Positions 6,663 to 8,356 of a stretch of DNA of 64,000 nt are shown here, piece by piece. How positions within the stretch are numbered: position 1 is the first letter of the stretch; the number at the start of each line of letters is the position of its first letter. The DNA lies in contig OZ024740.1 of NCBI GenBank assembly GCA_964016885.1, positions 187,550,001-187,614,000 of the forward strand. Reading direction: 5' to 3'. The notes beneath the pieces were generated by a model. The model searched no databases. It was not told the DNA's origin and worked only from the letters and a program-made list of their open reading frames with translations. Source of the DNA: Eledone cirrhosa. Its lineage: Eukaryota. Position numbers and translations under genes: made by a program.

Positions 6663-6857
6663 ATATAGATAATTTAATATATCAACTAACATAAGCGCAC
6701 AGATGCACGCCCATGCCAGCAAATACACAGGTTATGTCATAGTACCTAGGTGGTTCAATGCAGGAGAATGCAGAACAATAATATAAAGGACGTAAAATAA
6801 AAAAATATATTTTTTTAAAAAAAATTTAAAAAAAATTTTTTTCTTACTTAAATTTTC

Positions 6858-6939
6858 ACTCCAACTAATTAGTTTCTGCAATGGGATAAAGACAGTTACG
6901 TAATTCAACTGTCGAGAATTCATTGCGTCATCAGGAAGT
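6858..6939 (-). ncRNA. Type I hammerhead ribozyme, unit 1
   Basis: Minus strand: ACUUC-CUGAUGA-c-GCAAUG..GACAGUU..AACUGUC..CAUUGC-a-GAAA-CUAAUUAG-UU|GGAGU. 5-bp stem I, extended stem II, palindromic stem III ACUAAUUAGU, GUU site. Confidence 0.88.
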
Positions 6940-7417
6940 CTATTCTCAGTTAAGTCTCCAGGCAATGCGCGGACACTGGCGGCTCATATAAAAATAATAA
7001 TAATTCGGTAGATCGAACAGCTTGCGAGGACTGAATTCTATGTACCGAGATTCTCACTGCTTCAAGTCAAATGGCCGATTCTAAAGAATCAATCACGTGA
7101 CACAGAGGCTAGTTAGAAGGAATGGGATGGTAAGATGACTGACGCCTACTAACACCCCAAAAAAAATTTTTTTAGAAGTGGTTTTGACAAGTTTGCTCGA
7201 CAAATCAGTGATTTGGAGATAAATATAGATAATTTAATATATCAACTAACATAAGCGCACAGATGCACGCCCATGCCAGCAAATACACAGGTTATGTCAT
7301 AGTACCTAGGTGGTTCAATGCAGGAGAATGCAGAACAATAATATAAAGGACGTAAAATAAAAAAATATATTTTTTTAAAAAAAATTTAAAAAAAATTTTT
7401 TTCTTACTTAAATTTTC

Positions 7418-7499
7418 ACTCCAACTAATTAGTTTCTGCAATGGGATAAAGACAGTTACGTAATTCAACTGTCGAGAATTCATTGCGTCATCAGGAAGT
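7418..7499 (-). ncRNA. Type I hammerhead ribozyme, unit 2
   Basis: Identical to 6858-6939, shifted 560 bp. Confidence 0.88.
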
Positions 7500-7977
7500 C
7501 TATTCTCAGTTAAGTCTCCAGGCAATGCGCGGACACTGGCGGCTCATATAAAAATAATAATAATTCGGTAGATCGAACAGCTTGCGAGGACTGAATTCTA
7601 TGTACCGAGATTCTCACTGCTTCAAGTCAAATGGCCGATTCTAAAGAATCAATCACGTGACACAGAGGCTAGTTAGAAGGAATGGGATGGTAAGATGACT
7701 GACGCCTACTAACACCCCAAAAAAAATTTTTTTAGAAGTGGTTTTGACAAGTTTGCTCGACAAATCAGTGATTTGGAGATAAATATAGATAATTTAATAT
7801 ATCAACTAACATAAGCGCACAGATGCACGCCCATGCCAGCAAATACACAGGTTATGTCATAGTACCTAGGTGGTTCAATGCAGGAGAATGCAGAACAATA
7901 ATATAAAGGACGTAAAATAAAAAAATATATTTTTTTAAAAAAAATTTAAAAAAAATTTTTTTCTTACTTAAATTTTC

Positions 7978-8059
7978 ACTCCAACTAATTAGTTTCTGCA
8001 ATGGGATAAAGACAGTTACGTAATTCAACTGTCGAGAATTCATTGCGTCATCAGGAAGT
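7978..8059 (-). ncRNA. Type I hammerhead ribozyme, unit 3
   Basis: Identical to 6858-6939, shifted 1120 bp. Confidence 0.88.
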
Positions 8060-8356
8060 CTATTCTCAGTTAAGTCTCCAGGCAATGCGCGGACACTGGC
8101 GGCTCATATAAAAATAATAATAATTCGGTAGATCGAACAGCTTGCGAGGACTGAATTCTATGTACCGAGATTCTCACTGCTTCAAGTCAAATGGCCGATT
8201 CTAAAGAATCAATCACGTGACACAGAGGCTAGTTAGAAGGAATGGGATGGTAAGATGACTGACGCCTACTAACACCCCAAAAAAAATTTTTTTAGAAGTG
8301 GTTTTGACAAGTTTGCTCGACAAATCAGTGATTTGGAGATAAATATAGATAATTTA

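Follow-up and report, generated by a model that had tools for sequence, protein, structure and literature searches.

What kind of element is a perfect tandem repeat with a hammerhead motif in every unit, and by what route did it enter the genome? Both questions are raised by positions 6663-8356 of the 64,000-nucleotide stretch of Eledone cirrhosa DNA analyzed here (the window), which an earlier note had read as a candidate retrozyme array beside an intact Penelope-like element (PLE), produced by rolling-circle reverse transcription of a circular RNA. By every sequence feature that we examined, the array is a non-LTR retrozyme. Its dispersed relatives hold a record of insertion that probably reflects circle-templated copying of the retrozyme into (TA)n by a PLE-type reverse transcriptase (RT). 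The class of the element and its size are known, whereas the integration record is new.

A tandem array of hammerhead units in (TA)n

The array consists, as first described, of three identical 560-bp units plus 14 bp: a single exact run at lag 560 extends over 1,134 nt from 6663 with zero mismatches, and no other lag between 20 and 899 shows a run longer than 15 nt. The 14 extra bases had been taken for a redundancy; their length is as claimed, but they do not form a terminal repeat and correspond to a fixed 3' end at unit position 200 combined with a 5' truncation at position 187 (position 1 is the first base 3' of the predicted cut, at window 7422). The truncation of this copy falls at a TA-like microhomology. 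The unit is indeed non-coding, the longest ATG-started frame in its circularized form being 63 aa, and the circularized unit folds at -130 kcal/mol (z -4.7 relative to 40 dinucleotide shuffles). The array has a low GC content (35%), no LTR structure and TA-bounded ends, with 5' truncation scattered across copies. Long TA-rich tracts on both sides bear out its location in (TA)n, and the gap of 714 bp to the PLE end at 5948 agrees with the distance of about 700 bp previously given. The claim that 560 nt is unusually long did not hold, since the published range of 51-972 bp includes this size. Table 1 lists the features of the locus.

Table 1. Features of the retrozyme array and of the adjacent PLE (window coordinates)
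Feature	Position	Strand
Start of PLE inverted arm, continuing past the window edge; end at ORF nt ~81-84	1..898	-
Intact ORF of Neptune/Nematis-type PLE: RT, CX4CXXC linker, GIY-YIG-type C-terminus; candidate RT source in trans	1792..5427	+
3' pseudo-LTR of the PLE, ending 3' at ORF nt 26 and containing a minimal hammerhead-like core of its own (5700-5727)	5428..5948	+
Left (TA)n-rich target tract, common to array and PLE end	5949..6662	
Retrozyme array, 3.03 identical 560-bp units; 3' end at position 200 (window 6663), 5' truncation at position 187 (window 8356)	6663..8356	-
Downstream 3'-end site (position ~200 of the unit), repeated at 7223 and 7783; putative RT start used by the window copy	6663..6676	-
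Long hairpin, conserved, immediately 5' of the downstream site, with 3 pairs showing compensatory changes	6677..6726	-
Short hairpin immediately 3' of position 82, conserved almost without variation and hence without covariation support	6753..6776	-
Upstream 3'-end site (position 82 of the unit), repeated at 7341 and 7901; putative RT start, unused by the window copy	6773..6790	-
Type I hammerhead, copy 1: stem I, CUGAUGA, C.A mismatch, long stem II, GAAA, palindromic stem III; predicted cut 6863/6862	6858..6939	-
Predicted monomer, cleavage site to cleavage site (putative circular RNA)	6863..7422	-
Hammerhead, copy 2; predicted cut 7423/7422	7418..7499	-
Second predicted monomer	7423..7982	-
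Hammerhead, copy 3; predicted cut 7983/7982	7978..8059	-
Right (TA)n-rich target tract	8357..9149	

Other elements are found in the window. A short near-palindromic element at 9149-9235 has minimal hammerhead-like cores on both strands and related motifs at loci L034, L045, L049 and L079; it probably represents another PLE-derived family. On the minus strand at ~34150-36030, a hammerhead-like core near 34175 accompanies a GIY-YIG-like frame (35591-36028), with relatives in 9 fetched loci; by its sequence, this is what remains of a PLE of a second type. At 10465-13068 (+) and 25208-28701 (-) there are two LINE-like endonuclease/RT frames, each interrupted close to its start; from their motifs we take them to be CR1/L2-like and RTE-like.

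A conserved hammerhead fold

Each unit carries the type I hammerhead reported on the minus strand, with CUGAUGA cores at 6934, 7494 and 8054. The 5-bp stem I (with one G-U pair), the CUGAUGA core, the two-helix stem II, the GAAA and the palindromic stem III ACUAAUUAGU were each verified in the sequence, and the fold places the predicted cuts where the earlier note had them. A descriptor of this fold finds matches in only 4 of 20,000 base-shuffled units. The core is atypical: in 20 of 21 aligned variants, stem II has a C.A mismatch at its base (C in 20/21, A in 21/21). The proposed check with covariance models came out negative: an Rfam scan of the unit recognized no hammerhead family at E<=10, and the whole-window Rfam listing was dominated by TA repeats. 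When 21 distinct natural ribozymes are compared, 95.9% of 391 cells are paired, with 49 two-sided changes, a level reached in 0 of 500 shuffles in a test that relatedness of the 21 sequences can inflate. The fold looks to be under selection, because core, C.A mismatch and stem pairing are all kept across these variants. A cUUCGg tetraloop caps the upper stem II in one subfamily group (ribozymes of L055 and L102-L119).

Stem I is not predicted to form in folds of the circle or the trimer. Stem III is predicted at -9.0 kcal/mol as an intermolecular duplex versus +1.5 as a hairpin; a stem that is stable solely between molecules would fit dimeric cleavage, a mode of hammerhead action described in PMC4209133. 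Eight of nine Xenopus retrozyme dimers were reported as uncleaved in vitro (bioRxiv 10.64898/2026.07.22.740005), and the ribozyme of a PLE as dispensable for insertion in vitro (PMC11167929).

Outside the ribozyme, unit positions ~14-20, ~322-331 and ~347-355 are kept across retrozyme subfamilies. We take these to be, respectively, a splice-donor-like word just 3' of the cut, an E-box-like palindrome and a YY1-like word, and it is possible that they represent an internal promoter and an intron, as in PLE pseudo-LTRs.

A dispersed family with two fixed 3' ends

The earlier note had suggested looking for dispersed copies of variable unit number, and such copies, of 1 to 9 units in (TA)n, are present on many contigs. 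A genome search with one unit produced 274 matches from the best 40 of 656 candidate loci; the 150 matches listed are 95-100% identical and spread over many contigs. A 20-nt ribozyme motif has at least 9,366 exact genomic copies, versus 0 for the reversed control. Older subfamilies have units of 531-542 bp, with ~64-80% alignment identity to the window subfamily. Among the sequencing runs, none recorded as RNA was listed as containing the unit, three that we guessed to be RNA gave zero coverage at 80% likeness and a run of unknown kind covered 28 of 30 bins, a result uninformative on expression.

We mapped 64 arms in 40 young insertions, including the window copy, at loci selected for full-unit likeness; eight segments of diverged subfamilies were excluded from these family A counts. 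The 3' ends fall at position 82 (33 arms), at ~200 (30 arms) or at ~190 (1 arm), and at every one of them a TATAT runs into the TA of the target. TA runs have median lengths of 28-29 nt at 3' ends versus 17.5 nt at 5' ends; addition of TA at 3' ends is not evident from 16 paired cases, which are too mixed. The 5' ends are scattered, with a mild non-uniformity (Rayleigh p ~0.02), and none of the 64 lies within 5 nt of the cleavage site, on which ground a cleaved linear monomer was rejected as template. Most arms (54/64) are longer than one unit, and the longest reaches 9.15.

Twenty-four insertions consist of two arms placed head to head, with junctions that mostly show an overlap of 0-5 nt or a few inserted bases. 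In each of these 24, one arm ends at position 82 and the other at a downstream position; among single-arm insertions, the counts for the two sites are 9 and 7. Of the two-arm insertions listed for older subfamilies, most obey the same rule, with L117, L142 and L146 as exceptions. Fixed 3' ends, a one-sided tail, an inverted 5'-truncated arm and a microsatellite target together make up the insertion anatomy of PLEs, all of it present in the retrozyme. Two other origins of the inverted arm were discarded: a fold-back, as junction phases are far apart and unit-level variants unmirrored, and classical twin priming with adjoining start and stop, as the 5' ends found in one arm show no clustering around the start of the other. 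At L054:2350-2646, the 5' end of a single-arm array joins a decayed GIY-YIG-like C-terminus without TA (read by eye), possibly through a template switch or a target deletion.

The adjacent PLE as a likely partner

The intact PLE announced beside the array is there: its ORF carries an RT, a linker and a GIY-YIG-type end. The RVT_1 match is weak and below the curated cut-off and Pfam gave no match with the whole ORF, the linker and the GIY-YIG endonuclease being assigned from sequence motifs. On this motif basis, a single ORF accompanied by pseudo-LTRs combines an RT, a C-terminal GIY-YIG and a linker of the form CX2-5CXXC, the criterion for Neptune/Nematis elements in PMC8557442. An asparagine-rich insert of ~160 residues precedes the RT (window ~2520-3010). 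All 150 scored matches to this PLE are 99-100% identical and many have frames of ~1,217 aa; judged from these sequences, the family is young, abundant and active. Its 16 inverted insertions all pair an end at ORF nt 24-26 with an end at nt 69-84, always in TA.

Use of a PLE RT by the retrozyme, as proposed in the earlier note, gains support from an end signature and a pairing rule equal to those of this adjacent family. Adjacency alone carries no weight, because many (TA)n-targeting elements cluster, and their shared target accounts for the short distance between array and PLE. Nor did we detect, with blastn or nhmmer, any homology of the retrozyme unit to the window PLE and four related pieces, and derivation from a PLE pseudo-LTR finds no homology behind it in this set. 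Two 8-nt words common to the end sites of subfamily B and the PLE tail (1 in 5,000 shuffles) were set aside as a lead: 41 of 524 unit windows do as well, and the same words are absent from the window's own subfamily and are therefore not evidence. At L142, a five-unit array continues on the same strand into a 3' fragment of a related PLE, with 4 nt of microhomology at the join; this chimera is ambiguous between template switch and deletion. A retrozyme-PLE junction without TA at L117/L161 is tail to tail and reads as a deletion, and L122/L139, considered as indicating a new partner, are segmental duplicates of one another; both were rejected.

We may also hypothesize that the RT is supplied by another element, either a LINE or a PLE of a different clade, with the model otherwise unchanged; this reading overlaps the preferred one and bears solely on who the partner is. 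The absence of homology between retrozyme and window PLE would then be natural, other GIY-YIG-type PLE remnants exist in 9 fetched loci, and at L054 an array 5' end abuts such a remnant with no TA spacer. We hold this source to be rather unlikely: target, two-site ends and pairing rule are equal to those of the window PLE family, both families are young, and the L142 join links an array to a related PLE (a single case, which a deletion explains too). Furthermore, internal fixed starts and one-sided tails are traits of PLEs and not of LINEs (PMC11167929, PMC8557442). On this sequence record, the adjacent PLE is the likely partner.

TC tracts at subfamily B ends

In subfamilies reading UCUCUAUAU at the downstream site, 54 of 55 listed termini contain more than the two templated TC units, placed between element and TA; this is an upper estimate, counted by eye in the first 100 of 401 matches with a pattern that omits termini primed upstream of the TC. 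Among the same first 100 matches, 45 internal copies of the UCUC subfamily have no extra TC. Tracts attain 43 units. The loci L141-L160 do not form a random sample, most of them having been picked for expanded ends. In the window's own subfamily, one extra TC occurs at 1 of 30 ends (L067). We also observed exceptions, L158 having a T-variant internal unit yet a (TC)18 end, and L137 and L143 being unexpanded. The segmental duplicates L082/L084, which like L122/L139 each carry a retrozyme insertion, have a stable TC tract (31 versus 32 units) and TA runs of different lengths.

These observations suggest that the extra TC units arise by a telomerase-like stutter of the RT, which would seed microsatellites. 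In telomerase, a template boundary pauses the RT; by analogy, the conserved hairpin just 5' of the downstream site could act as a pause here. Slippage at the initiation of reverse transcription is known for the LINE UnaL2 (PMC1636434).

Alternatively, the (TC)n tracts may have been chosen as targets, or may have grown by later replication slippage beside (TA)n. Next to 3,220 other TA runs we counted 34 neighbors with (TC) of at least four units versus 3 with (TC)2, hence compound repeats arise elsewhere too; 3 of 32 expanded ends have (TC)4 or more on the far side, and the arrays of subfamily B are older (their units differ at 2-8 of ~535 sites), with L158 as a further point. The remaining 29 of the 32 expanded termini, however, show no (TC)4 within 120 nt on the far side, all are directly followed by TA, and at L080 the neighboring unit of the target minisatellite lacks (TC)n. 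The listed UCUU-variant termini are unexpanded, and a (TC)3 at site 82 is expanded in 4 copies versus 1,294 unexpanded ones, although this control is out of phase with the TA run and its count misses one-unit gains. A source of the tracts other than the RT therefore appears doubtful to us, and stutter the better reading.

A probable single monomeric template

All units of an insertion carry the same fixed variants, which differ from one insertion to the next. With 97 homopolymer-prone columns masked in 185 unit pieces, from loci chosen for similarity, substitutions per site amount to 0.00039 inside a single arm, 0.00067 when the two arms of an insertion are compared and 0.0042 when different insertions are; units of one insertion resemble each other about ten times more closely than they do those of other insertions. 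None of 14 minor within-insertion substitutions is common to two insertions. Rare alleles are common to both arms of an insertion; the arms agree in 22 of 22 informative pairs at site 518 (11 A, 11 G; one L046 unit differs) and in 19 of 19 at site 389. In L051, L059 and L062, a slippery homopolymer run departs from its usual length in the family in almost all units of the two arms. These lengths change from unit to unit, and one arm neither mirrors nor repeats the other, which is what separate passes over a single template should produce. The same substitution recurs at position 460 in 3 of 14 units of L048 and at position 364 in 2 adjacent units of one insertion at L035, both found nowhere else; this could be the repeated misreading of one template base. 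Near its inversion junction, L046 (2705-3500) has alleles belonging to a variant other than that found elsewhere in the array, possibly after a switch between two templates.

These patterns are most simply explained by a single monomeric template, traversed repeatedly, on which both arms were primed, although two RNAs from one source locus could account for the variants shared between arms. The rolling-circle origin put forward earlier is supported by the genomic evidence of dispersed copies, insertion-fixed variants and PLE-like end signature.

Could a PLE-type RT instead copy long, uncleaved linear multimers transcribed from homogeneous source arrays, with a weak or idle hammerhead and no circle? 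The atypical core and the poor predicted folding of stem I are in line with this, and unprocessed RNA was the main substrate of the anole PLE in vitro (PMC11167929). PLEs themselves make tandems of 4-kb units, a spacing seen among our PLE matches, and a linear template would account for fixed ends and pairing just as well. A mutation of the source array, however, would sit in one unit and be handed on in that unit, and variants are instead fixed in all units, while no substitution that varies within an insertion recurs in another. The unit-level homopolymer patterns are not repeated between arms, one insertion (L048) contains up to ~14 units (7.8 kb), and the hammerhead stems appear to be under selection. 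We consider the linear multimer unlikely and retain the circle.

Spread at the DNA level, as a satellite growing by unequal crossing-over, as extrachromosomal circles or as a Helitron-like rolling circle, with homogenization after insertion, is very unlikely. Satellites, the refuting alternative in the earlier note, typically show tandem identity and local homogeneity, and local expansion by unequal crossover is discussed in bioRxiv 10.64898/2026.07.22.740005. A satellite would have long local arrays and no strand-polar fixed ends; in this family, we found short, non-integer, TA-flanked arrays dispersed over many contigs, whose end polarity follows the ribozyme strand (3' fixed, 5' scattered) and whose inverted arms obey a strict two-site rule common to a PLE. 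Finally, perfect identity of the three units might have come from an assembly artefact, which is hardly credible given the unit-to-unit differences resolved in other arrays, the private allele 374C present in all three window units and in 0 of 39 other loci, and the contigs of run X19, which display head-to-tail unit joints of the family.

A model of retrozyme insertion

The model that best explains this sequence record involves one circular RNA, two RT starts and rolling-circle copying. The retrozyme would be transcribed and cut into 560-nt monomers, which would then circularize. The PLE protein would nick a (TA)n tract, and the nicked 3' end would pair with UAUAU at unit position 82 or ~200. 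The RT may then circle the template 1 to 9 times before stopping at random. When both target strands prime, one at each site and presumably on the same template, the two cDNAs would be joined head to head through a short microhomology of a few bases, giving an inverted insertion with a tail of ~118 nt on one arm. The window copy would be a single-arm product of three turns from site 200. On a UCUCUAUAU template, the RT may slip back two bases repeatedly and thereby write a new (TC)n tract.

More tentatively, and as a generalization that falls somewhat short of probable, a dimeric PLE-type RT acting on one circular ribozyme RNA from two fixed sites, one per nicked strand, may explain why PLEs generally have inverted arms and one-sided tails, its stutter writing dinucleotide microsatellites. 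The family leaves a readable record of retrozyme re-entry and of PLE inverted-arm formation in the form of two start sites, a pairing rule and same-variant arms. Substrate, enzyme (an intact high-copy PLE ORF) and predicted products can now be named for an in vitro assay of the kind used for the anole PLE. If the stutter is true, a relative of telomerase seeds microsatellites.

Comparison with known systems

The metazoan non-LTR retrozymes of Cervera and de la Pena (2020, PMC7229834), for which cleavage and circles were shown by experiment and mobilization was proposed, are likewise non-coding low-GC tandem units with one type I hammerhead each, in thousands of copies and co-occurring with PLEs. 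Their units measure 170-400 nt, a range that the 560 bp found here exceed. A C.A mismatch, a long stem II and a 10-nt palindromic stem III set the present ribozyme apart, although axolotl HHR_Amex2 also has a mismatch at the helix II base. In our retrozyme, the insertion anatomy points to PLE-type priming and a monomer bottleneck. The vertebrate retrozymes of Li, Clavereau and Pollet (bioRxiv 10.64898/2026.07.22.740005) span 51-972 bp, which includes our unit, mostly form arrays of seven units or fewer, as here, and also have a proposed PLE partner. Their PLE link consists of co-occurrence and pLTR homology (Xenopus cases); ours consists of ends, pairing and targets, without homology to the compared PLE. 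A circle-plus-PLE route was proposed in both papers, the authors of the latter stating that the mechanism remains to be worked out.

As in EN+ PLEs (Craig et al. 2021, PMC8557442), we find an inverted 5'-truncated arm, a tail at one end and microsatellite targets; the retrozyme tail is ~118 nt versus 30-40 in EN+ PLEs. The origin of the inverted arms and one-sided tails is called undefined in that paper. The anole PLE (Frangieh et al. 2024, PMC11167929) similarly has two internal RT starts, extends both target strands in vitro and is predicted to act as a dimer; it began at a non-homologous site, whereas the retrozyme ends at a UAUAU microhomology with its target. A one-site-per-arm rule and same-variant arms are not reported in the portions of these two papers compared. 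Within the open-access text that we consulted, no report describes such insertion patterns for a retrozyme or PLE-made microsatellites.

Chlamys MRC1 (PMC8557442) offers a parallel as a non-autonomous PLE passenger with multicopy head-to-tail insertions; unlike the retrozyme, it shares 3' sequence with its partner and belongs to a clade described as lacking canonical hammerheads. The eel LINE UnaL2 (PMC1636434) resembles the present case in its telomerase-like reiterative copying of a short repeat when reverse transcription starts. UnaL2 slips on an encoded 3'-terminal repeat, whereas the retrozyme template would slip on two internal UC units, giving rise to a new tract of up to 43 units.
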